Origin: a virus
DNA length: 52,637 bases
Reading direction: 5' to 3' (one strand)
IMG/VR virus record: IMGVR_UViG_3300035041_000009
Span: 1-52,637 of that record
Shown here: positions 9,881 through 41,658 of the stretch, in pieces
How positions within the stretch are numbered: the stretch's first letter is position 1
Layout: every line of letters starts with the position of its first letter
Position numbers and translations under genes: made by a program
The notes under the pieces: model-generated
Database searches by the model: none
What the model was told of the DNA's origin: nothing
The model's input: only the letters and a program-made list of their open reading frames with translations

Positions 9881-10178
9881 CAGCAACAAGATATATGTGG
9901 GCGATGTTGGCCTGGCAGTGATCTGCAACATTGGCGTGCAGACGACCTACGCAGAAAACATCGAGCTAAAGGTGCGCAAGCCGGACGGAACGGAAGTTAT
10001 CTGGGGCCCTGGTGAGCCGCACGAGGTTGACGGTGTGCCGAACTACGTGCGGTACATCACCAAAGAAGGCGACCTGGACCAACGAGGGCGCTACAAGATC
10101 CAGCCCAAGCTTAAACTGTCCGGCTGGGAAGGATACGGAGAGACCGACGATATCCGCGTAGACGGGAGGTATAGATAA
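9873..10178 (+). CDS. Small beta-rich structural protein (Ig-like suspected)
   Basis: ATG follows GGAGG and overlaps the upstream gene by 8 nt. Confidence 0.65.
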   Translation: MINSNKIYVGDVGLAVICNIGVQTTYAENIELKVRKPDGTEVIWGPGEPHEVDGVPNYVRYITKEGDLDQRGRYKIQPKLKLSGWEGYGETDDIRVDGRYR

Positions 10179-11975
10179 ATGGCGCAGGTTTATGTAAGCA
10201 GCACACGGTTTACCGATGAAACAGATCAGACGGATAAGTACGTCTACGGACGGCGATTAAAGATTGATTGCGGCGTGGATGGGATATTCTACACCCATGT
10301 GACCGACAGCAGCTATCTGAACGGCGTAGCCACGGTAACGGTGAACGATCCGGTAATAACTGCCAACCTCATAGCAGTGCAGGTCGGCGTTGTTTCATCC
10401 GGGAGTAAGGGCACTATCCCTCTCCATTCTCACGACAGCGACGAGCAGGGCGGACAGGCGAGCGCAGAAGCGATTAAGACACAATACGAATCCAATGCAA
10501 ATACCAACGCCTATACGGACGCCGAAAAGAGCAAGCTGGCAACGGTGGAGGACAGAGCCAACCACACAGGCACGCAACTGTCTTCTACCATCTCCGACTT
10601 CGACACCGCGGTACAAGCTGCCGAAACCGTAACCAGCCTATCCCTCACAACCAATACCCTCACATACGTGGATGAAAACGGCACATCCCACGACATAGAC
10701 CTCAGCTTGTACCTTGATGATACCAACCTCGCAAGGCTTACATCGGGAACACTGGATGGGGCTACAGGGATCGCAACCTTCACGCGTGACGATGCTTCAA
10801 CCTTCACCGTGGATTTTTCTGCGTTATTGGACGATACCCAGGTAACGGTTGAGGACAATCTTACCAGTACATCGGCGGACAATGCCCTCTCTGCCAACCA
10901 GGGCCGCGTTTTAAACAATCAACACATAGCCCTGCGCGAATCGGTGGCTGAACTCGACATCAACCCCATAATTTACGACGATTTCGGTGATGCTAACTGC
11001 ATGGTGCGCGTGCCGAAATTTAAGCTGGAAGATATCGACGCCTCACTCGGCACGGGTATTCATCCTGCGTTCATCGTAAATGGGGTAGAAAAAGACGCTA
11101 TCTATTACGGGCAGTATCCAGCGAGCGTAAAGGGCAGCAATTACGTATCTGTGCCCAACGCCGATCCTGCCAATACTATAAACTTCGATGAAGCTCTGGC
11201 AGCGTGCGCGGCAAAGGGGGCAGGCTGGCACCTATCCACCAACGCTGAATGGTCTGCGCTGGCTTTATGGGCGTGGAAGAACGGCACTATGCCACATGGA
11301 AACAACGACTATGGGCGCGATATCGACTATAAGCACGAAACGGGGAGGCTTACTGATCCCGCTGCGATTCTCGGCGATAGCGGCACAGCGCGTACCGCCA
11401 CCGGCACCGGCCCTGCTACATGGGCGCACGACCACACTATGCACGGCGTACACGACATGAACGGTAATGTGTGGGAGTTGCAAGGGGGTATGCGCATCGT
11501 CGACGGAGAGATTCAGATACTTGCCGACAACAATGCAGCCGACAGCACGAAAGACCAGAGCGCGACTAGCAGCGAATGGAAAGCGATTTTGCAGGACGGG
11601 TCTCTGGTTACACCGGGTACAGCCGACACCCTGAAATATGACGCTACCGGCGTAAATGGCGGCGGATCGCCGATCTTAAATAACACCGTGACTTCACAAT
11701 CCACGGGAACTGAATACTCATATGCGTACCTTGAGAGCCTGTCCGCCGAAACTGGGGTTTCAGTGCCTGCGCTACTGATCGCGCTGGGTATGTATCCGGT
11801 AGGAACAGGGCTCGGAGGTGACATAATATATGTCCGCAACGTGGGAGAGCGTTTCCCGGTCCGCGGCGGCAACTGGTACTTCGGCACGAGTGCCGGGGTG
11901 TTCTTTCTCCGCTTGAATACCGATCGGTCGTATCGGCACAGCGTTCTCGGGTTTCGCCCCGCTCTTGTAATCTGA
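10179..11975 (+). CDS. Tail fibre with a C-terminal FGE-sulfatase/C-type-lectin-fold domain
   Basis: Fibre repeat NAYTDAEKSKLATVE. The C-terminus carries GWHLSTNAEWSALALWA, NGNVWELQGG and RGGNWYFG...VLGFRPA, the SUMF1/FGE-domain signatures. Confidence 0.8.
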   Translation: MAQVYVSSTRFTDETDQTDKYVYGRRLKIDCGVDGIFYTHVTDSSYLNGVATVTVNDPVITANLIAVQVGVVSSGSKGTIPLHSHDSDEQGGQASAEAIKTQYESNANTNAYTDAEKSKLATVEDRANHTGTQLSSTISDFDTAVQAAETVTSLSLTTNTLTYVDENGTSHDIDLSLYLDDTNLARLTSGTLDGATGIATFTRDDASTFTVDFSALLDDTQVTVEDNLTSTSADNALSANQGRVLNNQHIALRESVAELDINPIIYDDFGDANCMVRVPKFKLEDIDASLGTGIHPAFIVNGVEKDAIYYGQYPASVKGSNYVSVPNADPANTINFDEALAACAAKGAGWHLSTNAEWSALALWAWKNGTMPHGNNDYGRDIDYKHETGRLTDPAAILGDSGTARTATGTGPATWAHDHTMHGVHDMNGNVWELQGGMRIVDGEIQILADNNAADSTKDQSATSSEWKAILQDGSLVTPGTADTLKYDATGVNGGGSPILNNTVTSQSTGTEYSYAYLESLSAETGVSVPALLIALGMYPVGTGLGGDIIYVRNVGERFPVRGGNWYFGTSAGVFFLRLNTDRSYRHSVLGFRPALVI

Positions 11976-12027
11976 TTTTCTGGCAATCTGTTGAGCGCCT
12001 GACAAGCAATAAATAGGAGTAAAATAT

Positions 12028-12540
12028 ATGACAAAAACATACATAGCAACAAACAAGCCAGACAAAGTTATGCTGGTTGAAGATGGAGAGATTAGCCACG
12101 CGATAAACCCCAAATGCGAAGAATGGGCAGGATACGAAGCGTATTTGGCAGAAGGAAACCAGCTCATAGAGCCGCAGCCCTCTGAAGCGCATGTATTTAT
12201 GCAGGGCGCGTGGGTGCTGGATGCTCAGCTGCAGGAGCAGTTGCAGACCCGGTACCGGAAGATGTGCGAGGATGCCATAACCCAGCACATCCAGGCTGAG
12301 GTAGAGCGCTACAATGCTGCCAACGATGTAATATTCCGCGATATCCACAGCTGCAAAGCCTATGCAGACGTGCAAAACTACACGCACCAGCCATTTTGCG
12401 CCGCAGTGTGGGCGTGGAACGTGGACGTATGGGAAGCTGCACGGAACATTCTGGCCGATGCAAAGAGCGGCACCAGGGCAACGCCTACGGTGGATGAATT
12501 GCTGGGCGAGTTGCCTATGTTTAGTGAAATACCCGCGTAA
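12028..12540 (+). CDS. Hypothetical protein (possible fibre accessory or chaperone)
   Basis: Good SD (AGGAG). The functional suggestion rests only on its position after the fibre gene. Confidence 0.6.
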   Translation: MTKTYIATNKPDKVMLVEDGEISHAINPKCEEWAGYEAYLAEGNQLIEPQPSEAHVFMQGAWVLDAQLQEQLQTRYRKMCEDAITQHIQAEVERYNAANDVIFRDIHSCKAYADVQNYTHQPFCAAVWAWNVDVWEAARNILADAKSGTRATPTVDELLGELPMFSEIPA

Positions 12541-12585
12541 CAATCGTGCAGATAGACAGTTTTTACACACTTTCGTGAGGGGTAA

Positions 12586-14175
12586 ATGCGCATAGACATA
12601 TCGACATTCAAGGGCACAGCACCGCAAGTGGCTCCGCACCTTCTCCCTGACGGTGGGGCGACGGTAGCCAAGAGCTGCGAACTCGGCTTTGGCGACCTTA
12701 GGCCGATTCATGGGCTAAGCGCGGGAGATACAACCGCCATCGCGGGGGATATAAAAACCCTCTACCGCTATCTGGATAGCTTTTGGTTTACCTGGCTCGC
12801 GGATGTGGACGTGGTGCGCGGGCCTGTAGCGGGCGACACAAGCGGGCGCGTGTACTTTACCGGTGACGGAGTGCCAAAGTTCACCTACGCCTCCGTGGCA
12901 ACGAGTGGGAGTATTTACCCCTCGGTGGATTACACCCTGGGCGTCCCTGCACCCGCAACCGCGGCGACATTAAGTATTGCCGGGGGCACGGCTTCCGACG
13001 ATATAGCGGATCAGCGCGACAGGGTTTATGTATACACATACTCAAACGGCTTCGGGGAAGAGTCCGCACCCTCTCCCGCTTCAAGCATTATCACCGTAAG
13101 TGGTACGCAGACCGTACTTGTGGATAGTCTGGACAACCCTCCTTCCGGCAGTTACGCACCCTTCCAATACAAGAACATCTATCGCACCGACGAGAACGGC
13201 GCCTACCGCTACGTGGCAAGTGTGGACGTAGCAAACTCCTCTTACACAGACGCTATCGACGATGCCGCCCTGGGTGCGGAGCTTTTAACGACTGACTGGA
13301 ATATGCCGCGTGACGACATGCAGGGGCTTACCTTCATGCCCGGTGGTACGCTGGTGGGCTTTTCCGGCAAAACGGTATGCTTCAGCGTGCAGAATCAGCC
13401 CCACGCCTGGCCTGTCGAGGGGGAATACGTGGTGCATGATGATATTGTCGCAATCGGCACTTTCGGTTCATCGGTGTTTGTCGCCACCACATCGTATCCG
13501 GTAGTCCTCACCGGGGCGGACTACTCCAGCATGAGCGTTGAACGCCTGGAGGTATCGCAGGCATGTTTGTATAAGCGCGGCATGGTGGATGCCGGGACCG
13601 CCATTATGTACCCATCCCCCGAAGGCCTAACCCTTGTCGGCACATCTTCGGCACGCGTGCTGACTGAGGGGACGGTGGATCGTGAGCAGTGGAGCGCCTT
13701 AATCGAGGGCTTCCGCTTCGGCGTTTACCACGATGGCAAATATATAGCCTTCACTGATACTGGCGGTTTTATCGTGAGCCTTGCCGACGGGAGTATCATT
13801 GACCACGACATTATGGCTGTAGGTGGGTATCTGCACGAAAAGACCGGCAAACTTTATCTGACCAAAGACAACGACAGCACTGTCTACGAATGGGACGCTG
13901 GCAGTGCGATAGCGTACACATGGCGCAGCAGGGAGTACCAACTACCTCTGCCGGGGAACTTTGGGCTTGTGCAGGTGGTGGCAGAGGCTTACCCGGTAAC
14001 GGTCACGGTTTACGCCGACGGAGAGCAGAAAGCGCAATACAGCGTAGGCTCAGCAAGGGCGCTCAGGCTACCCGGAGGGTTCAGGGCGAGAACGTGGGAA
14101 TTGTCGCTTGAAGGGACAAACCGCGTCCTATCTGCACACCTGGCGCAATCAGCGCAGGAACTTCAACAGGGGTAA
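12586..14175 (+). CDS. Tail/baseplate-like structural protein (529 aa)
   Basis: Large beta-rich ORF in the tail module. Confidence 0.7.
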   Translation: MRIDISTFKGTAPQVAPHLLPDGGATVAKSCELGFGDLRPIHGLSAGDTTAIAGDIKTLYRYLDSFWFTWLADVDVVRGPVAGDTSGRVYFTGDGVPKFTYASVATSGSIYPSVDYTLGVPAPATAATLSIAGGTASDDIADQRDRVYVYTYSNGFGEESAPSPASSIITVSGTQTVLVDSLDNPPSGSYAPFQYKNIYRTDENGAYRYVASVDVANSSYTDAIDDAALGAELLTTDWNMPRDDMQGLTFMPGGTLVGFSGKTVCFSVQNQPHAWPVEGEYVVHDDIVAIGTFGSSVFVATTSYPVVLTGADYSSMSVERLEVSQACLYKRGMVDAGTAIMYPSPEGLTLVGTSSARVLTEGTVDREQWSALIEGFRFGVYHDGKYIAFTDTGGFIVSLADGSIIDHDIMAVGGYLHEKTGKLYLTKDNDSTVYEWDAGSAIAYTWRSREYQLPLPGNFGLVQVVAEAYPVTVTVYADGEQKAQYSVGSARALRLPGGFRARTWELSLEGTNRVLSAHLAQSAQELQQG

Positions 14176-14178
14176 TAT

Positions 14179-16437
14179 ATGGCGTTCAAAAGACCATCCA
14201 TCCCGGCATTATCCGCCAAGACACCGAGCGATATACGCCGGGCGATAACCGCGCTTGTTGACCACTTGACCGGTATGGGCAGGCAGCAGGAGTTAGCGGA
14301 GCAATCCATAAGGAGGATAGCCGGTGACTTGAGCAATGTAGGAGTGTTCCCCGCGCAGCCTGCGCCTACGGGTTTTGTGGTCAACGGCGCATTTAACACA
14401 ATAATCCTGCAATGGGATCAATCGCAGACAAGCGGATTCTCTCACACCGAGATATGGCGCTCTACAACCGACAACCTGGCAGAAGCGTCTTACGTTGGCT
14501 CAACCTCTGCGTTTATCTTCTCCGACACTCCGCCGGATTCCAGGCTGAGCAGGACATATTACTACTGGATCAGGTATGTAAACCAGGGAGGGCAGCCCGG
14601 CCCCTTCAACGATACAGCCGGGACACCTGGAAGCACGGCGGACGATCCGGGTTATGTACTTGAAGTCTTAACCGGGGAAATAACTGAGGGCCAGCTATAT
14701 CAAGACCTTAACACCCGCATTGACAAGATAGAGGTCCACGGTGAAGCTATAAGCGCCCACGATCTTGCTATAAGCGCGAACGAAACAGCGATAAACAACG
14801 AGCAAACGGTAAGGCAAGACGCAGACGATGCATTGGCGCAGGACATAACTACTGTTTCAGCAGTTGCGAACGCTAAAGGCGACATATACCGGCAGGCCAC
14901 CCAGCCGGCAGGCAAGGCGGGTGATCTGTGGTTTGACACAGACGATAACAATAAACCGTATTACCATGATGGTAACGCGTGGGTTGAGGCAAGAGATGGC
15001 GAAATAGCACTAAACGCTGCCGCTATCCAGACAGAGCAGACAGCAAGAGCCGATGCGGACAGCGCATTGTCCTCGGAGATAACAACACTTGCAAGCACGG
15101 TAGACGGGAACACCTCAGCAATCCAGACGGAGCAAACCGCCAGAATTGACGGTGACAATGCTTTGGCGCAGGACATAACCACCCTGCAAACCACGGTAGA
15201 CGGGAACACCACTTCCCTGCAAACCAAGGCTGAAGTGTCTGATCTAAACGCCGTATACGAGGTAAAGACGGACATAAACGGGCGTGTTACCGGCTTCGGC
15301 CTGGTGGCGGATGCAACCTCTACAGAATTTGGCATATACGCCGACAGGTTTTGGGTGGCCGACCCGAGCGACAGCGCGAACGTGAAGATACCGTTTGTAA
15401 TAGATGGCGGGCAGGTGGTTATGGACACCGCGCTGATCCGTGAACTTACCGCAACGAACTTTGTTGGACAGAAAATAGTAGCGGACGAAGTGGTTGCGGG
15501 TGCAATAACGGCAGCGTCCATAGAGACCGGGACAATAACCGCGAGCAAGTATGCAGAAATACGCAACTCTTTAGTTTACAATGGCTCCGAATCACTGGAT
15601 TCTTCATACCCGCTGGAAGTACCATTTATGATTTTGAGCGAGACAATCGCGATAAAAGCGGTGCGCCTCTCTTTCCAAATTATGCCATATCGCGCGTATT
15701 CAAAGGCGGCGTCTAGCGGGGGCGGCTTTTCTGATGCCGATACATCTACGCCGAATGCTGGCATAAGCCACATGCACTGTGTCACATTCCCTGCAGGAAC
15801 GAACGAACATAATGATAACAACGCAGTGTATTACGATGCTGCCAACAACAGGCTTTGCTCCGCTGCAGTCCCGTCATACCCCCAGGAATACATCGAGTTC
15901 GAGACAGAAGAGGGGCACATCCATAAGCTGCCTGTTTACAACGATGCCGCGCCCGGTGACGTCAACAAGCATATCAAGATAGAAGGCGGAAAGATTACCG
16001 TAGGAAGTGCAGGGGGCGGGTATATAGAAACAACATCAACAGATAACCATGCGCATCACATACCCGTGGATTACAGCTCAGGGAATGTACTTTACCTTTA
16101 CTATTACGGCGGTTCATTCAAGGTGAACTCGGAGACGAGAACCTTGTGTACCCTACCAACGGCAGACCAACACACCCATTCCGTCTCTATCAGCGCACCC
16201 GATCACACCCACGGTATAGATTATGGGATTTTTGAAGAAAACAACAGCCCGACAATCAGCGTATATACAGACAACGGTGGCGGATACTCTCTCTATGGGT
16301 CGTATTCGTCCGACCAGATCAACAAGATTTTAACCACGCGGTTTTCCGGTACGGGTTGGAAGGGTATAAGGTTCAACGCTTCGCAAAGGTGCCGCATTTC
16401 CTACGTGCTTGAATGCAAGCTAGATATAACCGCATAA
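14179..16437 (+). CDS. Host-specificity/tail-spike protein (FN3-like domain, coiled-coil repeats, HxH-rich C-terminal needle)
   Basis: FN3-like PTGFVVNGAFNTIILQWD...YYYWIRYVN. J-like VTGFGLVADATSTEFGIYADRFWV. Five HxH motifs lie in the C-terminus. Confidence 0.8.
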   Translation: MAFKRPSIPALSAKTPSDIRRAITALVDHLTGMGRQQELAEQSIRRIAGDLSNVGVFPAQPAPTGFVVNGAFNTIILQWDQSQTSGFSHTEIWRSTTDNLAEASYVGSTSAFIFSDTPPDSRLSRTYYYWIRYVNQGGQPGPFNDTAGTPGSTADDPGYVLEVLTGEITEGQLYQDLNTRIDKIEVHGEAISAHDLAISANETAINNEQTVRQDADDALAQDITTVSAVANAKGDIYRQATQPAGKAGDLWFDTDDNNKPYYHDGNAWVEARDGEIALNAAAIQTEQTARADADSALSSEITTLASTVDGNTSAIQTEQTARIDGDNALAQDITTLQTTVDGNTTSLQTKAEVSDLNAVYEVKTDINGRVTGFGLVADATSTEFGIYADRFWVADPSDSANVKIPFVIDGGQVVMDTALIRELTATNFVGQKIVADEVVAGAITAASIETGTITASKYAEIRNSLVYNGSESLDSSYPLEVPFMILSETIAIKAVRLSFQIMPYRAYSKAASSGGGFSDADTSTPNAGISHMHCVTFPAGTNEHNDNNAVYYDAANNRLCSAAVPSYPQEYIEFETEEGHIHKLPVYNDAAPGDVNKHIKIEGGKITVGSAGGGYIETTSTDNHAHHIPVDYSSGNVLYLYYYGGSFKVNSETRTLCTLPTADQHTHSVSISAPDHTHGIDYGIFEENNSPTISVYTDNGGGYSLYGSYSSDQINKILTTRFSGTGWKGIRFNASQRCRISYVLECKLDITA
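15022..15213 (+). repeat. Tandem 2 x 96-nt in-frame repeat inside the tail-spike gene
   Basis: AIQTEQTARADADSALSSEITTLASTVDGNTS is followed by AIQTEQTARIDGDNALAQDITTLQTTVDGNTT. A more diverged copy lies near 14790-14880. Confidence 0.8.
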
Positions 16438-16510
16438 TCAACCACTTACCTTGTAAAACTTCCGTATTTACGGTATATTGTAAGAAATAAACACAGGACA
16501 CCTTTAAGGC

Positions 16511-16553
16511 CCTGCTGTGCTTTATCCTTCGGGACTGCATAGCAGGTTTTTTT
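16511..16553 (+). terminator. Rho-independent terminator after the tail genes
   Basis: CCTGCTGTGC (16511-16520) pairs with GCATAGCAGG (16537-16546), followed by T7. Confidence 0.75.
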
Positions 16554-16565
16554 ATTAGGAGCAAC

Positions 16566-16949
16566 ATGCGCAGCGTAAACCTGAGACAAGATTGGGAGTT
16601 TATCCGCAAAGGCTTAGAGCAGATTCAAGCCAAAAGCGCCGCCCTGGATTGGATACCCGAAGATTACTACATGCTTTTGAAGCAAAGGGTAATGGATGGG
16701 TATATCTGGGAAGGAACGGGGTTTATCCTCTTTCGGGACGTGGACAACCCATTCACGCAGGAGCGCGGCATATTCGTCATGGCGGCGTGGAGCCCTGACA
16801 CAAAGAACTCACACCGCGCGTGGAAAGAGTTTGAACAACAGGCGCAAGGTTGCGCATACAAGTTTATAGAAATGGACAGCACAAGGAGCGGATGGGAACG
16901 CCATAGCGATTGGCGCCCTGTCCGCACCGTATACAGAAAGGAGCTTTAG
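16566..16949 (+). CDS. Hypothetical protein
   Basis: ATG follows AGGAG. First gene after the terminator. Confidence 0.65.
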   Translation: MRSVNLRQDWEFIRKGLEQIQAKSAALDWIPEDYYMLLKQRVMDGYIWEGTGFILFRDVDNPFTQERGIFVMAAWSPDTKNSHRAWKEFEQQAQGCAYKFIEMDSTRSGWERHSDWRPVRTVYRKEL

Positions 16950-16951
16950 CC

Positions 16952-17536
16952 ATGGGCGGAGGCGGCGGAGACGACGTAGATCCGAAGGAAAGCGCACAGG
17001 AGCGCGAACTTGCAGCAATCAGCAAAGAACAGATGGATAGATGGTGGAACCAGGGGCGACCGGCGCAGATGCAGTGGATTGAGGACGGTCTTGTAGATGA
17101 AAACGACCGCAGCCTTATGGGTGACGCTGTAGGTGCCAAGGTGCATCAGCAGGCACAGCAGCAGAGAACCGCCCTGGGGCAACAGCAGAGAAGCCGGGGG
17201 ATTTCCCCCACGTCAGGCAACGCCACAATGGGGCGCGCAGCCCTTGAGGACGAGGTAACCGGAAGGATTGGTGGACGCGCCCAGGCAACGGGGCAGCACT
17301 CGATGACAAACAAAAACCTTGGGCATTTGATGAACGCCACATCGGTACTGCGCGGTGAAGGTGTAGACGCGCAACAGGGACTATCAGACCTGGCCGACGC
17401 TGCGACCAGGGACAGTATCCACGATGCTAACATGAATCTCTACGATAACCAGACCGAAGGTCAGGAGATCGGTGCGGTTGCCGGAGCAGGACTTCGAGGG
17501 CTTGAATCCTGGTATGGCAACAGGAATACGGGTTAG
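16952..17536 (+). CDS. Hypothetical internal-virion-module protein
   Basis: ATG 16952 follows AAGGAG. Q/G-rich. Confidence 0.6.
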   Translation: MGGGGGDDVDPKESAQERELAAISKEQMDRWWNQGRPAQMQWIEDGLVDENDRSLMGDAVGAKVHQQAQQQRTALGQQQRSRGISPTSGNATMGRAALEDEVTGRIGGRAQATGQHSMTNKNLGHLMNATSVLRGEGVDAQQGLSDLADAATRDSIHDANMNLYDNQTEGQEIGAVAGAGLRGLESWYGNRNTG

Positions 17537-17546
17537 GCGGTGACTT

Positions 17547-18113
17547 ATGAGTATTTGGGATAATTTTTACGGTGGCCTTTTGTCACCTGACATTCCGCAA
17601 TCAACATCCAGCCCCACGACCGTCAATATAGGCGGATCGGCAGACATTAGTGAAAGTATGCGTGAGGCTGCAGAGGCCGGGCGTAACTTCACACCAGGGA
17701 GGACTTCCGCAGCGACGGGGTACGCGGAAAGCTCGGACGCAACCGACACCCTGGCGCAGCTCACCCGCGACCAGTGGGAGTACTACAAGCAGGTAGGCGT
17801 TCCCCTTGAGGATGCGCTTTACAGTTCGTACCGGAATAAAGGCCTTTGGAACGAAGAAGTGCAAACCGCCGGTGACGCTTCCGACGCGCAATATCGCAAC
17901 GCCATGAGCAATATCCAGCGCGAACAGGGGCGCTACGGTGTGAATATGTCCAACCGCCAGACCGACGCAATCGAGCGCAGGCTAGGGCTATCGGCAGCGG
18001 CGGCAAAGGTAGCCAACCGCAACGACGCGCGCAAGATGATGCAGGAAACCGACAACGCAACCATGACGGGCGGATCAACGCAGTCTGTAACGCTTAAATC
18101 ACTAATGGAGTAG
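17547..18113 (+). CDS. Hypothetical internal-virion-module protein
   Basis: Track ORF in the operon. Confidence 0.6.
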   Translation: MSIWDNFYGGLLSPDIPQSTSSPTTVNIGGSADISESMREAAEAGRNFTPGRTSAATGYAESSDATDTLAQLTRDQWEYYKQVGVPLEDALYSSYRNKGLWNEEVQTAGDASDAQYRNAMSNIQREQGRYGVNMSNRQTDAIERRLGLSAAAAKVANRNDARKMMQETDNATMTGGSTQSVTLKSLME

Positions 18114-18117
18114 AGAT

Positions 18118-18390
18118 ATGTCACGAGGACTTCTGGGCTTAGGCCAAAGCTATCAGGATATGGGGAAAAGTGGATTGCAGAAATCCTCAAACCTTGAGCG
18201 CGAGCGCGAACAGCGCGCGGAGATGAACGAAAAGCAGGAGGAAGCGGCGGAGAAGCAAGCCAAGGGCTCGGCGGCCGGGCTAGGGGCTGCGGCGGGGGCC
18301 TCCATGGGCGCGTCCTATGGTTCATGGGGCGGACCTATCGGCATGGTAATGGGCGCAGCAATCGGCTACGCAGCATCGAGCTTGTTTTAA
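18118..18390 (+). CDS. Small protein with a C-terminal glycine-zipper membrane segment
   Basis: GSAAGLGAAAGASMGASYGSWGGPIGMVMGAAIGYAASSLF. Confidence 0.65.
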   Translation: MSRGLLGLGQSYQDMGKSGLQKSSNLEREREQRAEMNEKQEEAAEKQAKGSAAGLGAAAGASMGASYGSWGGPIGMVMGAAIGYAASSLF

Positions 18391-18399
18391 GGGGGATAT

Positions 18400-19812
18400 A
18401 TGAGCAGTCAGGGTTTTGTCGGCGGTCTTATGCAAGGCTACGACTTTATGGACGATAGATACAACCGCAAAGCACAGAACGAACGCCTTGCGCGTCAGGA
18501 GGACAGGCAGGACAAGCGCCTGGGGATGCAGGAGGAAGCGCACGAGATAGAAAAAATGCAGCGGGAACGTGCGGACGAAGCGCGGAAGATTCAGGCGGTT
18601 CAATACAAGATGCAGAATCAAGTCCCCCTTTCTGAAGATGAGCAGAAGATTGTAGACCGCTATGCCGGTGACGAACGCACGCAGCGGTTTATGCAGAAGG
18701 TGGAGAAAGACCCGCGCAAGGTGTACAGCGCTGCCGATTCCATCCTGCGGGGCGTCAAGGGTGAAGCGAGCAAGACCGATGTTATCAACGCGAGTAACTA
18801 CCTGTTCGACAGCTGGATCGGTCAAGGGGATGGGAAAAACAAGCGCATATCGGACTTAAAACCCATAGACGGGAAGATATACGCAGAGCTGGAATACGAC
18901 GACGAGGAAACGGGAGAACGCGTGACCGGGGCCCCGCTTACCTACCGACGCAAAAAGAGTGACAGCGTTGTGCGTGATCTTGAAGTGGGTAGAGCGGCGG
19001 AAGCGGCTCAGATGATGAAAGCCCTTGCAGCAGAGCGTATCCGCCTGGGCGACACCGGACCGCTAGAACAGCAGGCGAAGCAACAGCAGGCGCAGCGTGA
19101 ATTGGGGCTTAAACTCTTTGAGCGCGGGCTTGACCGTGAAGATATGGCGATTGAGCACGGGTACGACATGGAGAAGGCGCGCTACGAGGGCAATGTGGAG
19201 TTGCAGAAAGAAGCCGTGAAGAAGGCAGAGCAGGCCCTTGGAGAAATGCAGGGGTATATCGACCAATTATTTGAAGAGCCTGTTCTTGACGAAGAAGGCA
19301 ACCAGATCATGCAGGTGGATATGCAAGGCAACGAAGTTCCGGTTACCCGCACCAACCTGGCAGACAAGGCAGAGTTTGTCGTTTTTACGCTACAACGAGG
19401 GCACCGTAATTGGGACGACTCTTACCGTGAGTTTGTGCAGGTAAAACGACAGCAGGCGCAGCAACGGCAGGCAGAGCTGCGCGCACAACAGGTCCAAGAG
19501 CAGGCGCAGAAGAAGGTCGCGAACACTGAACAGCTAATCCAGGGCGGAGATGTGCAGGCGGCAAAAGAGGTGCTTGCAGAGTACCAAAACCAGACCCCTA
19601 AGGTTTACCAATTCATTATGGAGAACCTCTCCGAAGAAAGCCGCAAGGCGCTTCAACAGCCGGCACAGCAACAGCCTGAAAAAGAGTACACCCTGGGCAA
19701 AGGCTTACAGGACGCAAAGACCAACCTTGGGCGAGTGGGGCAAAAAGCAGCCGGAAAAGCAACCGGGCTTAGCGATTGGGTGGACAGCCTAAACTTTAAT
19801 TGGAAGAAATAA
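18400..19812 (+). CDS. Q/E/K-rich coiled-coil protein (470 aa), probably an internal virion protein
   Basis: Track ORF. SD is GGGGGA. Composition and position support the call. Confidence 0.65.
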   Translation: MSSQGFVGGLMQGYDFMDDRYNRKAQNERLARQEDRQDKRLGMQEEAHEIEKMQRERADEARKIQAVQYKMQNQVPLSEDEQKIVDRYAGDERTQRFMQKVEKDPRKVYSAADSILRGVKGEASKTDVINASNYLFDSWIGQGDGKNKRISDLKPIDGKIYAELEYDDEETGERVTGAPLTYRRKKSDSVVRDLEVGRAAEAAQMMKALAAERIRLGDTGPLEQQAKQQQAQRELGLKLFERGLDREDMAIEHGYDMEKARYEGNVELQKEAVKKAEQALGEMQGYIDQLFEEPVLDEEGNQIMQVDMQGNEVPVTRTNLADKAEFVVFTLQRGHRNWDDSYREFVQVKRQQAQQRQAELRAQQVQEQAQKKVANTEQLIQGGDVQAAKEVLAEYQNQTPKVYQFIMENLSEESRKALQQPAQQQPEKEYTLGKGLQDAKTNLGRVGQKAAGKATGLSDWVDSLNFNWKK

Positions 19813-33285: not shown

Positions 33286-33709
33286 TAGCATTGTCACATA
33301 TAAGAGCGGATACAAGCACCAGAACGATAAGCTGAGGGTGTACCAGACACGCATATGCCCACCCCAGGTGGTAGAATCCCGCTATATCACCTTAAACACA
33401 GACGGGCGCCTATTTATCAACGGCGCATACGCATGGGACGGCCCTACCGGCGTGCCGGAGTGGCTGGTGAAACGCTGGATGAAGTGGCTCATGCGCCCAA
33501 GCCTGATCCATGACGCTCTGTGTCAACTCGCCCGCGAAGGTCTGCTATCCCCCAAATACGCGGAGCAGATAGATATTGAGTTTAAGCTGGCGTGCCACCA
33601 AGACGCGCGTTGGAAGTGGCTTGGCAATACGGCTTACTTCTTTGTGCGCAAGTTCGGCAGTTTTGCCACCGACCCCGCAAACAAGCGGCCAATCCTCACG
33701 GCCCCTTAA
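33263..33709 (+). CDS. DUF1353-like protein
   Basis: YAWDGPTGVP...SLIHDALCQL pattern. The start is ambiguous (GTG 33263, ATG 33266 or ATG 33272). Confidence 0.65.
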   Translation: MMKMQKIDSIVTYKSGYKHQNDKLRVYQTRICPPQVVESRYITLNTDGRLFINGAYAWDGPTGVPEWLVKRWMKWLMRPSLIHDALCQLAREGLLSPKYAEQIDIEFKLACHQDARWKWLGNTAYFFVRKFGSFATDPANKRPILTAP

Positions 33710-34784
33710 TGCCATTGCCCCCGGTAGCCCCTCCTTCTGCCGGGGGATTTTTTAACACCGCGTCCCGCAACGCCTCCGCCATCTCCTGCAGCTGCGGATC
33801 GTACCTGTGTCTGTTGTACGTCTGCGTCAGTTTGTCTACAGAGTGCCCCAGGAACCGATGTATCAGGAAATCGTCAAAACCTTCCGCTGCAAGGATTGTG
33901 GCACATGTCCGGCGAATATCATGCGGGCGATACCTGCGCTTATGCCTCGCACAGTGCGTGGCAAGCCCGCCCTTGGTAGATAGGCCAAACACTCGACCTT
34001 CGCCCTCTCCGATGAACTCCAGAGCCTCAGAGACAAGATAAACGCGCTTATATGTTTTCTTGCCACCCTTGATCTGCTCACATATCCACCACTCTCCGTC
34101 AATGTCGGAATACTTTACACCCTTGCACTCGCCGCCGCGCTGCCCGGTTAGAAGCATAAAATATAGCACCCGGTCTGCTTCGGATTGATCCCTGCGCGCG
34201 ACGATCTCCGCTATCTCTTCACTGTTTAGCACGACCCGGCGCGGCCCGTTCTCTTTAGCTTTGCGCAGATTCACACATGGGTTTGCTTCAATCCAGCCCA
34301 TTTGGCAAGCATAGGTGCATATCCTTGACACCCTGGACTTTGTGATATTGTATTGCCGCGGCGTGCTTTTTTTATGTTCGAGCAATTCAGCCACATGCAC
34401 ACGCTTTAGCTTGTCAATCGGCATATCCCCGATGTAGGGGTAAACGTCCTGCTTCAGAGAACGCTTGGCCTCCTTTCCCTCGTCTGCGTAGTTGAAGGTT
34501 TCTATAGCCTTTTTAGCGACCTGCTCAAAGGTGAGCCCCGGCCTGCCGATGTCTCCGCGCTCTCTTTGAGACACCAGCTTTGCATGGGCCTGACGCGCTT
34601 CGTGTAGTCCAAGTGCCGGGTAACCACCTATGCGCTTTTGTTTACGCTTGCCCTTTTCCTGAAAGCGGTAGTACCAGGTTTTCTTTCCGGACGGCTCTAT
34701 GTATAGTGTCAAGCCGTCGCCGTCGGTGACAGAATACCGCTTTTCTTTCGGTTTCAGGCTCTTTACTTTTCGGTCTGATAACAT
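33696..34784 (-). CDS. int: Tyrosine integrase, P4-type (Arm/DUF4102 N-terminus)
   Basis: MLSDRKVKSLKPKEKRYSVTDGDGLTLYIEPSGKKTWYYRF at the N-terminus. Catalytic region HDIRRTCATILA...LGHS...Y. ATG 34784 lies 5 nt after GGAGG. Confidence 0.9.
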   Translation of the reverse strand: MLSDRKVKSLKPKEKRYSVTDGDGLTLYIEPSGKKTWYYRFQEKGKRKQKRIGGYPALGLHEARQAHAKLVSQRERGDIGRPGLTFEQVAKKAIETFNYADEGKEAKRSLKQDVYPYIGDMPIDKLKRVHVAELLEHKKSTPRQYNITKSRVSRICTYACQMGWIEANPCVNLRKAKENGPRRVVLNSEEIAEIVARRDQSEADRVLYFMLLTGQRGGECKGVKYSDIDGEWWICEQIKGGKKTYKRVYLVSEALEFIGEGEGRVFGLSTKGGLATHCARHKRRYRPHDIRRTCATILAAEGFDDFLIHRFLGHSVDKLTQTYNRHRYDPQLQEMAEALRDAVLKNPPAEGGATGGNGIKGP

Positions 34785-34930
34785 GCCCGCCTCCATGTGC
34801 CATTTCATGTGCCAGTGATGGGTTACAATGTGACACAACATGACACATAAAGTCTATATGTTGTTTTACAAGGTACTGAAATTGCAGGTATTTTTTCATA
34901 CATTCCAGTTACTTACAAAACCCGGAATTA

Positions 34931-37682: not shown

Positions 37683-37849
37683 GGGAATCACACGATGACT
37701 GGGGTATCTGCCCATATTGCGGGCAACTGGACGAAGCAGGCAACCGTTGTGGATGCGACGCGCAAAGCCTGTATGACTTTGAAGAGGAGCGCGGGGATTA
37801 TCTATACCACCGCATGAAGGACATGGAAGCGGAGGAGATGACGATATGA
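37679..37849 (+). CDS. 56-aa zinc-ribbon-like protein (not in ORF track)
   Basis: ATG follows GAAGGAGG. Contains CPYCG...CGC. ATGA couplings at both ends. Confidence 0.6.
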   Translation: MRESHDDWGICPYCGQLDEAGNRCGCDAQSLYDFEEERGDYLYHRMKDMEAEEMTI

Positions 37850-38586
37850 GCAAGATTGACTTTAAAAGGTTCGCTGAACCGTTCCCTGCTGATGATGTGG
37901 AATGGCGCATTGCTCAGAAGGGTGTTGGCAGGAACGACAAACCGTGGGCAAAGGTTCTTGCTTACATAACCAACCGCGCGATTATGCAGCGTTTAGACGA
38001 TGTAGCAGGCCCGGAAAACTGGAAGAACGAGTTTGTGCATATTGAAGGTGCATTCTTGTGCGGTTTGTCTATCAAGATAGATGGTGAGTGGGTTACGAAA
38101 TGGGACGGTGCCCAGGAAAGCCAGATCGAAGCAACCAAAGGCGGATTATCTGGGGCGATGAAGCGGGCCGCTGTCCAATGGGGGATAGGCCGTTATCTGT
38201 ATGGCCTGGATGAAGGGTTTGCAGAAGTTTGCGACAACGGGCGCTTTTACAGTGGCAGGGATCAGCGCAACAATATCCCTGCATTTAAGTGGAACCCCCC
38301 GAAGCTCCCAGCCTGGGCGTTGCCGCAAACAACAGACAGGCGGAAAGAGGAGAAACGGGGGACCACAGGTGTAAATAATCACGATCATAATACCCAAAAC
38401 AAACCACCGCGTCAAAGAAGTAACGGCGCTTCCGTCCTTTCGCAAGAGCAGTTCGAGCAATATCTTCCGGCTTGGAAGGTGCAAGTCAAGGAAGGTAAGC
38501 GCACCGTACAGGACATTGTGAACGCGGCAAGGGACAAGGGCATCAACCTTACAAACACACAAATAAAGCAACTGGAGGCAGCATGA
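37846..38586 (+). CDS. Rad52/Sak-type single-strand annealing protein
   Basis: RIAQKG...AYITNRAIMQRLDDVAGPENW...KGGLSGAMKRAAVQWGIGRYLY. Confidence 0.8.
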   Translation: MSKIDFKRFAEPFPADDVEWRIAQKGVGRNDKPWAKVLAYITNRAIMQRLDDVAGPENWKNEFVHIEGAFLCGLSIKIDGEWVTKWDGAQESQIEATKGGLSGAMKRAAVQWGIGRYLYGLDEGFAEVCDNGRFYSGRDQRNNIPAFKWNPPKLPAWALPQTTDRRKEEKRGTTGVNNHDHNTQNKPPRQRSNGASVLSQEQFEQYLPAWKVQVKEGKRTVQDIVNAARDKGINLTNTQIKQLEAA

Positions 38587-40238
38587 ACACACACGACAAC
38601 ATAGAGCAGGGAACCCCGGAATGGCACGCACTACGCGCTGAACACTTCACCGCGTCCGAGGCATCCGCAATGATGGGGGAGAGTAAATACAAAAGCCGGA
38701 ATCAACTCCTGGAAGAGAAGGCCACCGGCAAAACCCCCGAAGTATCCGAAGCAAAGCAGAGGATATTTGACCAGGGGCATGAGGCGGAAGTTGCAGCACG
38801 CGACATTCTGGAGATGGAGACGCTTGAAAGTTACCCACCGCTGGTAGCTACGCGCGAGATTGAAGGTCTGCCACTGTTGGCTTCGTTCGACGGTTGCAGC
38901 CTGGGAAGCCGCGGACTGTGGGAGCACAAGCTGTGGAACGAAACCCTGGCGGAGAATGTGCGTAATGGCGCGCTGACTCCTGACTATTATTTTCAGCTGG
39001 AGCATCAGTTGCTTGTAGCTGGAGATAGCGCCACAACCGTCACATTCACTACATCAGACGGAACCATGGAAAAGCGCGAAAGTATGGTTTATGAATCTGT
39101 GCCTGAACGGCGCGAAAGGCTCATTGCCGGGTGGCACCAATTCGCAGCGGACCTTGCCAACTACAAGCCCAAGGCCAAGCAGGAGAAGGTAGAAGGCGCG
39201 GACGCTGACGGTTTCCCTCTCGTTAAATACGAAGTGCACGGCACCGCCATTCACTCCAACCTGCGCGACATTCTCCCCATCGTGAAGGAGCGCGCAAAAG
39301 AAGAAATGGCCCGCCCGCTGGAAACGGATCAGGACTTTGCGGATAAGGAAAAGCAGGTAAAGGCGGTAAAGGCAGCGCGTAAGCACCTGAAGGAAACAAC
39401 GGAAGATGTAAAGGGTGAGTTTGTGTCCTTCGCTGAATTTTCATCCTTAGCGGCGGAAATGGATAGCGTACTGCAGAAGCTCCAGAGCCACGGCGAGAAG
39501 GCCGTTAAAGATGCCAAGGCGCAGAAAAAGCGCGAGATTGAGCAGAGTGCAGACGAGGCCCTGCGCGAGCATATCGCAAGCGTGAACGAAAAGATTGCCC
39601 CCCTGCACATTGAAAACATCATCGACATTATCCCGGACTGGGGCACAGCGATGAAGAACAAGCGCACCCTGGAATCATTGCAGAACGCCGTGGATGAAGA
39701 GTTGAGCCGGGTGCAGATCGAGATTGCGCAGGCGGTAAAGATCATCCAGAACAACCTTGAATTTTTCAACAGTCAGAAAGACTACCACTTTCTGTTCAAC
39801 GATTTGGAGCGGATCATCAACCAGCAGTCCGAAGGCTTTAAGGCCCTGGTGCAGCAGCGTATCGCGGACTACGAAGCGGAGCAGAAGGAAAAGCGCGAAC
39901 GTGAGGAGAGGGAGCGCAAGGAGCGCGAAGCGGCAGAGGTAAAGCGCAGGGAAGAGGCTGAAGCGCGGCGCAAGGAACGGGAAGAAGCGGATGCCAAGTG
40001 CAGGGAAGAAGATCGTGCGCAGGAGGTTAAGACCGAACCGGAGGAGGCCCATGAAGCATCGGCAACGAATGCACAAACGCCTGCTGAAGTGCCAATACCT
40101 GAGAAGGTTTCTACGGGCGAAGCGTACACGCTCATTGATGAAATAGAGGCATGGGCGCAGCGACACCAGTTGGAACCATCGTCCTTGCGGGAGCTGTTCC
40201 AGATTATCCGCAGGCATTATGCGAAGGAGGCAGCATAG
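38583..40238 (+). CDS. YqaJ/lambda-Exo-type exonuclease with a long charged C-terminal extension
   Basis: GTPEWHALRAEHFTASEASAMMGESKYKSRNQLLEEK...ASFDG...WEHKLW. The C-terminal half is an E/R/K coiled coil. Confidence 0.8.
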   Translation: MNTHDNIEQGTPEWHALRAEHFTASEASAMMGESKYKSRNQLLEEKATGKTPEVSEAKQRIFDQGHEAEVAARDILEMETLESYPPLVATREIEGLPLLASFDGCSLGSRGLWEHKLWNETLAENVRNGALTPDYYFQLEHQLLVAGDSATTVTFTTSDGTMEKRESMVYESVPERRERLIAGWHQFAADLANYKPKAKQEKVEGADADGFPLVKYEVHGTAIHSNLRDILPIVKERAKEEMARPLETDQDFADKEKQVKAVKAARKHLKETTEDVKGEFVSFAEFSSLAAEMDSVLQKLQSHGEKAVKDAKAQKKREIEQSADEALREHIASVNEKIAPLHIENIIDIIPDWGTAMKNKRTLESLQNAVDEELSRVQIEIAQAVKIIQNNLEFFNSQKDYHFLFNDLERIINQQSEGFKALVQQRIADYEAEQKEKREREERERKEREAAEVKRREEAEARRKEREEADAKCREEDRAQEVKTEPEEAHEASATNAQTPAEVPIPEKVSTGEAYTLIDEIEAWAQRHQLEPSSLRELFQIIRRHYAKEAA

Positions 40239-40544
40239 ATGTACTACAACACCACCAACCTGAAAGGAGCGGAACTGAAAGCCGCCCAGGATAAAGCCCG
40301 CACCCAGGAGCAGGACGTTTACGAAATCCTGTACCTGGCGAACCGGCCCCTGGGTGCGAGTGAGGTAATGGAGAGGCTTCGTCACTTCAATAAGCGCCCG
40401 CCCATAACATCGGTGCGGCGGGCAATATCGAACTTAAAGAAAAGCGGATTAGTAGAGCGGGCAGATCATCAGATTATCGGCCCGTATGGCAGACGCGAAT
40501 ATGCGTGGACACTTAAACGTAAGGAACCCATGGGATGGCAGTGA
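40239..40544 (+). CDS. Winged-helix DNA-binding protein
   Basis: VYEILYLANRPLGASEVMERL...ISNLKKSGLVE. Confidence 0.6.
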   Translation: MYYNTTNLKGAELKAAQDKARTQEQDVYEILYLANRPLGASEVMERLRHFNKRPPITSVRRAISNLKKSGLVERADHQIIGPYGRREYAWTLKRKEPMGWQ

Positions 40545-41173
40545 GGCAAGAACAAGGAGGAGTGGTCTGCAAGGGGCGTCGCTGGACAGAAGCGGAAGTG
40601 GAATTGCTTAGGCAAGGTTTCGGCGCCGGCATCCCTGATGATGAAATGGCGGTTCTTTTAAGGCGGACGCATGTTGCCATAAAGCAAAAGCGCAAGAGAA
40701 TGAAGATTACTGGCGACCCCAATCAAAGGCGGCTGTCTGATAAGGCAAGAACTGGAATGGCTAGGAAAAAGAGGGGGCCAGAAAGCCACTCATGGAAAGG
40801 CGGCAGGCGCATAACTTCAGGCGGATATGTCGAAATACACATGCCAAGCCATCATCGTGCAAGAAAAAATGGATACGTTTTCGAGCATATAGTTGTCGCT
40901 GAGAAAAAAGAGGGGAGAAGGATGTCACGCGATGAATGTGTCCATCATGCCGATGGGAACAAAGAAAATAATTCCCCTGAAAATATCATAGTAATTAAAA
41001 GGTCGGCCCATTCGGGACAACACGCAAGGCTTAGAAGCAGGAAGGTCGAAATGATTTGCAGCGTATGCCACGCCCCGTTTTACGTAAAGCCATCCCATCG
41101 GGAAAAAAGGAAAACATGCAGTAAATCATGCGCGGCACAAATAACTTTATGGAGAGGAAACCAATGTCAGTAA
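40535..41173 (+). CDS. HNH endonuclease with a Myb/SANT-like N-terminus
   Basis: RRWTEAEVELLRQGF in the N-terminus. HNH core: GYVFEHIVVAE...VHHADGNKENNSPENI. Confidence 0.8.
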   Translation: MAVRQEQGGVVCKGRRWTEAEVELLRQGFGAGIPDDEMAVLLRRTHVAIKQKRKRMKITGDPNQRRLSDKARTGMARKKRGPESHSWKGGRRITSGGYVEIHMPSHHRARKNGYVFEHIVVAEKKEGRRMSRDECVHHADGNKENNSPENIIVIKRSAHSGQHARLRSRKVEMICSVCHAPFYVKPSHREKRKTCSKSCAAQITLWRGNQCQ

Positions 41174-41658
41174 ATAAGTGGATAGGTATCGGCAATCTTA
41201 CTCGTGATCCGGAAAGCAGATTTACACCTTCCGGCACTGAAGTTTGTAACTTTAGCATTGCCTGCAATGACAGGTTTAAGGACCGTGAAGGCAATAAGCA
41301 GGAGAGTGTCGAATATGTAAACATTGTCGCATGGCGTCAACTTGCTGAAATCTGCGGTAAATATTTGCAGAAGGGCAAGCAGATTTATGTTGAGGGGAAG
41401 CTCAAAACGAGAAAGTGGCAGGACAGAAACGGTGTCGACCGTTACACCCCCGAAATTGTAATTGACACTATGCAAATGCTCGGCAGTGCATCCGATAGCC
41501 AGCAGAACACCGGTGCCGGACAAAATGCCGGACAATCCCAGCAGCAAAACAACGCCCAGACCCCCGGAAACACTGGCGGTTATGCTGGACAAAATGGCGG
41601 ACAGCCTGGATATGCAAACGGCCCTGACTTTGCGCCGGACGATTCTACCCCTTTTTAA
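41164..41658 (+). CDS. ssb: Single-stranded DNA-binding protein
   Basis: MSVNKWIGIGNLTRDPESRFTPSGTEVCNFSIA..., a Gly/Gln-rich linker and a DDSTPF tail. Confidence 0.92.
   Translation: MSVNKWIGIGNLTRDPESRFTPSGTEVCNFSIACNDRFKDREGNKQESVEYVNIVAWRQLAEICGKYLQKGKQIYVEGKLKTRKWQDRNGVDRYTPEIVIDTMQMLGSASDSQQNTGAGQNAGQSQQQNNAQTPGNTGGYAGQNGGQPGYANGPDFAPDDSTPF

Follow-up and report, generated by a model that had tools for sequence, protein, structure and literature searches.

Polyvalent proteins, the class defined by Iyer et al. in 2017 (PMC5512222), combine several unrelated effector domains in one polypeptide of a phage or conjugative element and are encoded among late or virion genes; they are believed to be at work in the infected cell earlier than any other phage product, before phage gene expression, and probably help to decide whether an infection survives host restriction and other defences. 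DarB of phage P1 (2,255 amino acids, aa), in which a gamma-class N6-adenine (N6A) methylase of the TP...NPPF type and a superfamily 2 (SF2) helicase-like ATPase share one polypeptide, is a head protein that gives cis protection against type I restriction (cited in PMC5512222), and in DdrB of the same phage a ParB-superfamily domain precedes a C-terminal metallopeptidase with HExxH (PMC5512222). The subject of this work is a 52,637-nucleotide stretch of viral DNA (IMG/VR record IMGVR_UViG_3300035041_000009, positions 1 to 52,637; the window throughout) and in it one giant gene, the product of which is, judged by its sequence, a phage-type polyvalent protein of the "DarB-like" giant virion protein kind.

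Among described relatives of this protein, gp69 of phage JC1 gave 51 unique peptides in purified virions (PMC9144972), and gp47 of the Stx phage phi24B, with LPD5, LPD1, LPD38 and metallopeptidase domains, makes up a large share of the proteins detected in the virion, where a role in ejection, as the former of a conduit, has been proposed for it (bioRxiv 10.64898/2026.04.10.717836). Knock-down of PTXU04_00025 (gp25) of the E. coli phage PTXU04 strongly lowers plating efficiency (PMC11879866). The virion RNA polymerase (vRNAP) gp50 of N4 (~3,500 aa, ~380 kDa), which has a zincin-like domain, sets a precedent for a podovirus that packages and injects a protein of such size.

The class has been known since 2017 and is annotated in cultured phages, and the window protein is an additional instance of it. 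We think it likely, by analogy with these relatives, that it travels with the virion and is injected with the DNA. Comparison with a sister phage divides it into a constant frame and two payload slots. Added here are an assignment for its C-terminal third, a corrected domain order and ParB clade, and a sister pair of phages with exchanged cargo.

Domain Architecture and Described Relatives

With residues numbered from TTG 19833, the protein comprises 3,469 aa and is divided as follows (basis of each assignment in brackets).

19833..30242, + strand, coding sequence for 3,469 aa, the predicted giant polyvalent protein; no other large gene follows it in the virion operon (collinear giant open reading frames, ORFs, in relatives)
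19833..20912, + strand, N-terminal module, aa 1-360 (hydropathy, alignment, dN/dS, the ratio of non-synonymous to synonymous change)
20913..22745, + strand, acidic/basic low-complexity and helical region, aa 361-971, a frame part common to the sister phage (composition)
22746..26570, + strand, proposed payload slot 1, helicase-methylase cassette, aa 972-2246 (interval without homology to the sister contig L008)
26580..26699, + strand, conserved linker between the payload slots, aa 2250-2289 (118 bp, 26581-26698, 96.6% identical to L008)
26721..27083, + strand, proposed payload slot 2, predicted ParB/sulfiredoxin-fold domain, aa 2297-2417 (profile of relatives)
27084..27602, + strand, candidate zincin-like metallopeptidase domain, aa 2418-2590 (invariant residues, model)
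27603..30239, + strand, C-terminal LPD38 module, aa 2591-3469 (Pfam, homologues, model)

Helicase, N6A methylase, ParB-fold, HExxH and LPD38 domains represent several unrelated effectors in one polypeptide, and the gene lies among late and virion genes, with terminase, SU10-type portal, capsid, tail fibre and tail tip genes upstream and an Amidase_3 endolysin gene downstream. The LPD38 family (PF18857), itself a mark of polyvalent proteins, is matched with E 1.5e-35 and 123 bits against a cut-off of 27, and the PHROG "DarB-like antirestriction" is matched as well; NCBIfam returned nothing above cut-off and no match to the PLxRFG model, and when 50,697 phage records were searched by megablast with the gene, none matched. 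The earlier note, a reading of the DNA letters without database searches, had proposed a polyvalent architecture like that of P1 DarB. Its seven named motifs are all present where it placed them, and LPD38, the PHROG match and the gene order bear out the polyvalent, DarB-like reading, but the protein is not collinear with P1 DarB.

Relatives in cultured phages are annotated "DarB-like antirestriction protein", "PLxRFG protein" or "LPD38 domain-containing protein", and collinear giant ORFs occur in Parlo, ZX1, 45A6, Skulduggery, Vibrio 1.232.O, a Comamonas phage-plasmid and L008. Five of these, which we list under the heading of temperate podophages, are of similar size: Serratia Parlo gp081 (3,764 aa), Klebsiella ZX1 (3,867 aa), Pseudomonas Skulduggery gp28 (3,695 aa), Ruegeria 45A6 (3,912 aa) and Comamonas thiooxydans WP_224651464 (3,832 aa). 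They share the helicase-then-methylase cassette as one block, 40-49% identical over ~900-1,250 aa (40-44% in Parlo, ZX1 and Skulduggery), whereas outside the cassette BLASTP similarity is weak or undetectable. Parlo and ZX1 further share a piece of the N-terminal module with the window protein, and the Comamonas protein has LPD38 in common with it. Virion genes, giant gene and lysis genes follow one another in this order in Parlo, ZX1 and Skulduggery, as in the window, and lysis-type genes likewise lie downstream of the giant gene in 45A6 and L008. The Comamonas protein is encoded on a 57.7-kb circular 'plasmid' (L090, NZ_CP083940.1), its cassette being 49% identical to that of the window; replication initiator and AAA ATPase genes lie downstream of the giant gene, and the record looks like a phage-plasmid.

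The closest relatives of aa 1-970, of the ParB-like domain and of the C-terminal 1,040 aa are found instead in L008, Vibrio 1.232.O and PTXU04. PTXU04 gp25 (2,197 aa) and Vibrio 1.232.O gp28 (3,292 aa) share the whole unit of zincin-like domain and LPD38 module, at 31-32% identity over ~1,040 aa (31% between aa 2428-3465 and PTXU04 gp25), and the predicted C-terminal fold of PTXU04 superposes on that of the window protein with TMq 0.77. In phi24B gp47 LPD38 and the metallopeptidase are present by annotation, together with LPD5 and LPD1 as in the sister L008; PTXU04, Vibrio 1.232.O and phi24B all differ from the window protein in their N-terminal payloads. P1 DdrB has its ParB-superfamily and HExxH domains in the same order as the window protein, which differs in leaving the Pfam family ddrB-ParB unmatched and in ending strand 2 with Gly where the DdrB clade has Asp/Asn. 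The reading as an N4-like virion RNA polymerase was rejected, as no polymerase domain was found and the window protein has no significant similarity to gp50.

Sister Phage and Exchanged Cargo

The sister protein (P0016, 3,301 aa, gene 10001-19906) is encoded on the 55.9-kb contig L008 (IMG/VR UViG_3300035050_000030, JGI sample 3300035050), which is syntenic with the window across the stretch fetched. The two proteins are 84% identical over window aa 1-971 and 82% identical over aa 2247-3469 and have nothing in common over aa 972-2246. The same division is seen in the DNA, where matching segments of the two phages are mostly 80-92% identical.

19038-22744, 81% identical to L008
22745-26580, no match to L008
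26581-26698, 97% identical to L008
26699-27107, no match to L008
27108-31694, 92% identical to L008

In place of the helicase-methylase cassette the sister protein carries LPD5, LPD1 and a RadC-like JAB domain, and in place of the ParB-like domain an unrelated segment of ~190 aa. A precomputed Pfam match places AcrIF11_ADP_ribosyl, an anti-CRISPR ADP-ribosyltransferase family, somewhere between RadC and LPD38 and probably in slot 2; compared with the PDB structure of AcrIF11 (6kyf) the slot 2 segment gave a non-significant E of 0.72, and a local Pfam scan returned no AcrIF11 match. The shared frame is under purifying selection (dN/dS 0.06-0.22 against L008), and the slot boundaries fall in interdomain linkers and keep the reading frame. 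The 118-bp linker is flanked on both sides by DNA without match to L008. It is not put forward as a recombination hot spot, since its 97% identity is not clearly above the 92% of the adjacent C-terminal region. Internal direct repeats that might serve cassette exchange amounted to chance-level pairs of 18-19 nucleotides only, and in a collection of 5.8 billion proteins no recent donor of the cassette was identified, the best relatives being ~50% identical.

The window and its sister constitute a natural swap experiment in which a conserved frame is separated from exchangeable enzyme cargo, and the split provides testable boundaries for the parts that serve packaging and ejection, and for engineering phages that inject chosen proteins. 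A more general proposal, in which the giant protein serves as an all-purpose delivery frame and the contents of its two slots, each bordered by conserved linkers, can be interchanged, is tentative, and we hold it to be nearly, though not quite, an even bet. If it were true, packaging and injecting essentially any cargo would take no more than the N-terminal module and the C-terminal zincin-LPD38 unit, and recombination in the linkers would exchange cargo as host defences change. The window cargo, helicase-methylase and ParB-fold, would then act against restriction, and that of the sister, LPD5-LPD1-RadC and probably an AcrIF11-like ADP-ribosyltransferase, could act against CRISPR.

Genome-wide, identity to L008 is very uneven, ranging from no match through ~70% up to 97.8% in a segment of the early region (window 40225-41595 against L008 28532-29901), which indicates extensive mosaicism beyond the giant gene.

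Payload Domains

Slot 1 contains the following features.

22875-23237, + strand, small helical domain
23238-23702, + strand, Gly/Arg-rich linker
23730..25472, + strand, predicted SF2/SNF2-like helicase ATPase, aa 1300-1880, with a coiled-coil insert after Walker B (Pfam, PDB)
23829-23843, + strand, Walker A GTGKT (motif)
24081-24092, + strand, Walker B DEAD (motif)
25314-25346, + strand, motif VI QQEGRIYRVGQ (motif)
25635..26207, + strand, predicted gamma-class N6A DNA methylase, aa 1935-2125 (Pfam, P1 DarB alignment)
25662-25688, + strand, methylase TP motif FATPEPL (motif)
25734-25760, + strand, methylase motif I VLEPSAGHG (motif)
25917-25928, + strand, methylase motif IV NPPF (motif)
26328-26570, + strand, small C-terminal domain

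The SNF2/DEAD helicase recognised in the earlier note finds profile support in both lobes: the N-lobe (aa 1313-1430) matches the Pfam families ResIII (E 3.5e-11), DEAD (5.4e-07) and SNF2-rel_dom (2.9e-05), and the C-lobe (aa ~1760-1870) matches Helicase_C_4 of the Strawberry-notch type (7.3e-06) and Helicase_C (1.1e-03), while in the PDB the SsoRad54-like protein 1z63_A (SNF2/Rad54) is matched with E 8.8e-06. Coiled-coil-type Pfam matches fall within 100 aa past DEAD, so that, as in DarB-type proteins, a SWI2/SNF2-related SF2 ATPase with a helical insert past Walker B stands in the same polypeptide as the methylase. The gamma-type N6A methylase, also named in the earlier note, is sustained by Pfam matches at aa ~1960-2120 (MTS, E 4.8e-06; N6_Mtase, 2.1e-05), by 25% identity to the P1 DarB methylase (aa 91-274, E 8.5e-06) and by the order of its motifs TP, I and NPPF. 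A TP...NPPF pair with motif I before IV is the signature of the gamma-class, EcoKI/TaqI-like methylases of polyvalent proteins (PMC5512222), and the N-terminal TP and NPP(Y/F) expected of the DarB type are both present.

Slot 2 and the domain that follows it were approached with a full HMMER search with aa 2240-2600, which retrieved 876 relatives splitting into two separate domains, A (aa ~2297-2417) and B (aa ~2418-2590); a word-indexed search with aa 2240-2620 had a single homologue as its outcome.

26847-26858, + strand, GTHR of the G-x-H-R motif, in GTHRLAAA at 26847-26870 (motif)
27195-27209, + strand, HEGLH (motif)
27351-27353, + strand, invariant Glu (alignment A3)

By themselves the ParB-like and HEGLH regions of the window matched no Pfam family. 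Domain A occurs mostly as stand-alone proteins of 110-170 aa; P0001 is 57% identical to the ParB-like domain over 56 aa. The eight best PDB matches of a profile of 25 relatives (A2) are ParB, SbnI and sulfiredoxin (E 1.7e-4 to 2e-3), the G-s-H-R of the relatives falls on the G-E-R-R of ParB with its catalytic Arg, and Pfam ParB_N is matched by 7 of the 25. The ParB N-terminal-like domain claimed in the earlier note is supported in this way through its relatives, having both the ParB N-terminal fold by profile and the active-site Arg of the ParB/sulfiredoxin superfamily. On these profiles its clade is one related to ParB_N, the members of which are for the most part small proteins that stand alone. 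We considered the DdrB-ParB clade and rejected it, neither the window segment nor the 25 relatives matching PF18763 (Pfam ddrB-ParB); where strand 2 ends, the window has Gly against an Asp in the family consensus.

Domain B is present, at varied positions, in 88 of the 92 large proteins from the HMMER search. Across 23 diverse relatives, which share 26-46% identity with the window domain (alignment A3), its residues H41, E42, H45, E93 and Y97 never vary, so that the HExxH motif and the Glu of a later helix, as expected of a zincin-like metallopeptidase, are both present. The AlphaFold2 (AF2) model (predicted local distance difference test, pLDDT, 79) has three strands, then the HExxH helix and further helices, an arrangement described for the zincin-like peptidases of polyvalent proteins (three strands, HExxH helix, later helices; Iyer et al., PMC5512222). 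Among the 23 relatives DUF6782, a putative metallopeptidase, is matched by four (best E 0.0015) and Peptidase_M78 by one. A profile search of the PDB gave IrrE and N4 vRNAP at a non-significant E of ~1.3, the zincin-like region of N4 being the top match; hhalign against P1 DdrB gave E 0.063 over only 26 columns, and Foldseek against the PDB gave nothing below E 1. The zincin motif read in the earlier note holds as to the invariant H-E-x-x-H...E and a compatible predicted topology, but its metallopeptidase matches are weak, and we regard a zincin as plausible.

N-Terminal and C-Terminal Parts of the Frame

The N-terminal module contains these features.

19974-20030, 20487-20549 and 20754-20816, + strand, Gly/Ala-rich hydrophobic segments, aa 48-66, 219-239 and 308-328 (hydropathy)
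20661-20720, + strand, invariant motif EGxFEELPQSxQE...N.A (alignment A4)

The three Gly/Ala-rich segments reported in the earlier note for the first ~350 aa are present and weakly hydrophobic (Kyte-Doolittle maximum 1.26-1.42), and its acidic, low-complexity stretches are seen too, Asp and Glu reaching 28% at aa 701-800. In an alignment of aa 1-360 with the N-termini of other giants (A4), E277, G278, E282, P284 and Q285 and several Gly are invariant. A search of IMG/VR with the EGxFEELPQSxQE motif returned 451 contigs. Throughout the 80 best loci the motif stands close to the N-terminus of an ORF of very large size (median complete length 2,628 aa), and what lies downstream of it varies highly. 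Used as a single sequence to search IMG/VR, the N-terminal module retrieved the sister contig alone, and a PDB profile search with it found no relative. Its dN/dS against L008 is 0.08, and that of aa 361-971 is 0.12-0.15; a Pfam scan of the latter region gave no match.

Within the C-terminal module two parts can be delimited.

29361-29894, + strand, Pfam LPD38 core, aa 3177-3354 (Pfam)
29895-30239, + strand, basic C-terminal tail (composition)

The ~1,000 C-terminal residues that the earlier note had left unassigned turn out to be a widespread zincin-like and LPD38 module of phage polyvalent proteins. We found 14 homologues of the C-terminal module, all with LPD38 and some of them stand-alone proteins of 800-900 aa, one of which is encoded directly upstream of an SU10-type portal gene. 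The AF2 model of aa 2590-3469 (pLDDT 70) is mostly helical and superposes on the C-termini of many phage LPD proteins (TMq 0.7-0.78), whose N-termini are RelA/SpoT, lysozyme-like or methylase domains. No close prophage relative was found when the GTDB species representatives were searched with this module. In the last 115 codons (29895-30239), which encode the basic helical tail, there are no non-synonymous changes against L008 and 17% of synonymous sites differ; no part of the protein is more constrained than this tail, a candidate signal for packaging or portal binding.

Gene Start and Operon

The ORF is unbroken from 19800 to 30242 on the plus strand (3,480 codons counted from TTG 19800), with an in-frame stop at 19797. 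Counted from the same TTG, a further TTG is found at codon 73, the first GTG at codon 77 and the first in-frame ATG at codon 145, and because no other start codon occurs before these, TTG 19800 and TTG 19833 are the sole plausible starts, in agreement with what the earlier note had said of this 10.4-kb ORF. TTG 19833 has AAGGAG 6 nucleotides ahead of it and is clear of the upstream gene, the last position of which is 19812; the sister gene has an identical AAGGAG and TTG, called independently, and its protein begins LAEKQ.

19821..19835, + strand, AAGGAG ribosome-binding site (19821-19826), 6-nucleotide spacer and TTG start (19833-19835), present in L008 too (read from sequence)
30392..30419, + strand, terminator-like hairpin, 12-bp stem followed by a T-run, closing the operon that ends with the giant gene (sequence)

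Giant genes start with TTG in the window and in L008 (10001), and GTG is annotated in Parlo, ZX1 and Skulduggery (L001 15366, L002 4111 and L004 4600); the called sequence P0017 starts with V. An ATG start is found in the giant genes of 45A6, Vibrio 1.232.O, PTXU04 and Comamonas. Such a weak start and the place in the operon would suit a virion protein made late and in few copies. The four genes immediately upstream, which the earlier note had taken for internal virion proteins, could not be confirmed as such; their PHROG matches, where there are any, are to families of unknown function. An ORF of 40 aa with a very hydrophobic product (MANQGWLLILTVIGGVFFAGNSLAMMLLGIVLIIILATIF, window 30245-30367) begins 2 nucleotides past the TGA of the giant gene and is 100% identical to a called L008 gene (19909-20031). 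Because it stands just ahead of the terminator and the amidase endolysin gene, it could encode a small membrane or lysis-related protein.

Proposed Mode of Action and Alternatives

In the mechanism that we propose, the frame comprises the N-terminal module (aa 1-360), the low-complexity region (aa 361-971) and the zincin-like/LPD38 unit (aa 2418-3469). Late transcription at the end of the virion operon and the weak TTG start would give few copies, which would be incorporated into the head through the frame and most likely through its C-terminal module, since stand-alone LPD38 proteins are encoded near portal genes and distant giants that share modules are seen in virion mass spectrometry. The protein would be ejected through the tail as an unfolded chain, its hydrophobic N-terminal segments may engage the envelope, and the zincin-like domain, as argued from PMC5512222, may cut the chain into working units. 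The helicase would then travel along the entering DNA while the methylase modifies adenines, and this methylation would protect the entering DNA in cis from restriction, as has been shown for P1 DarB only; the ParB-fold domain may act as a nucleoside triphosphate (NTP)-dependent nickase or an NTPase. The frame is probably required for infection as such, with the payloads accessory and exchangeable between phages.

Several observations weigh against this mechanism. In P1 DarB the domain order is LPD36, methylase (aa 91-274), helicase (Walker A aa 857), and in the window protein it is reversed, with helicase at aa 1300-1880 and methylase at aa 1935-2125, an order common to Parlo, ZX1, Skulduggery and 45A6. 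Resemblance to P1 DarB does not go beyond the methylase, the helicases having no significant pairwise similarity, and DarB, the protein in which function has been tested, has no LPD38 module, ParB domain or zincin-like domain. The relatives detected in virions are remote: JC1 gp69 has no more than the small helical domain in common with the window protein, and phi24B gp47, in which LPD38 is annotated, was too distant for tblastn to recover. Foldseek found no PDB match for the C-terminal module, so that its packaging role is a guess, and for the zincin assignment neither profiles nor folds gave a significant match. No target-recognition domain can be recognised in the methylase, and the Dam and C5 methylases of the phage could protect its DNA without the giant protein. 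The sequences show which domains are present, where the gene lies and how frame and cargo are divided; for the window phage itself we infer packaging, ejection, processing and anti-restriction activity alike.

A possible, if rather doubtful, alternative is that the giant protein is chiefly a structural ejection protein which, once released, builds or extends a channel across the cell envelope like the ejection proteins of T7 and P22, with the enzyme domains as secondary passengers that matter little for infection. PTXU04 gp25, which shares the C-terminal unit, is needed for plaques on a laboratory host, and the conduit proposed for phi24B gp47 agrees with such a role, as do the conservation of Gly-rich hydrophobic segments in the N-terminal module and that of the frame as a whole while payloads are swapped. 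Sequence and fold nevertheless bear no similarity to solved ejection proteins (the T7 gp14-16 and P22 gp7/gp16/gp20 type), the sole ejectosome entry returned by N-terminal profile and C-terminal model against the PDB being 9k2v (E 7.3, TM 0.06); the hydrophobic segments are only weakly so, and the enzyme domains, ~1,400 aa together, have stayed intact, their catalytic motifs being conserved. A channel role overlaps with injection of a frame-and-payload protein and does not exclude it.

It is quite improbable that the protein is an unpackaged, late cytoplasmic helicase-methylase that modifies progeny DNA before packaging, like ordinary phage methylases. Its N6A methylase is credible and its gene is co-transcribed with late genes, but stand-alone Dam and C5 methylases are already encoded by the phage, and architecture, LPD38 and a position after the virion genes match proteins that are found in virions. 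As the earlier note had counted, the phage has three DNA methylases, namely Dam (42229-42729), the C5 methylase (44276-45433) and the N6A methylase of the giant gene itself.

That the ORF is an artefact, an assembly chimera or a fusion by sequencing error, as might be suspected from its unusual length, non-ATG start and mosaic relatedness to other phages, is extremely improbable, there being no stop in 3,480 codons, single ORFs of similar size (3,300-3,900 aa for the collinear ones) and the same domain order in eight independent genomes including complete cultured phage genomes, purifying selection on the frame at both ends, and slot boundaries in interdomain linkers that preserve the reading frame; the fusion that the earlier note would have accepted as a refutation is thereby set aside.

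Other Genes of the Window

The phage that we prefer to see as the carrier of an injected frame-and-payload protein is temperate, with a tyrosine integrase, and also encodes a Rad52-like annealing protein, a YqaJ-type exonuclease and a ThyX thymidylate synthase.

33696-34841 (- strand), 37846-40238 and 48363-49073, integrase, recombination and ThyX genes, listed jointly

The sister phage has an ERF-family protein in place of the Rad52-like one. The tail-tip/fibre gene encodes 752 aa in the window (14179-16437) and 1,112 aa in L008 (2078-5416), and homology covers no more than the 5' part and one short segment inside the gene, a sign that the receptor-binding parts of the two phages may differ.

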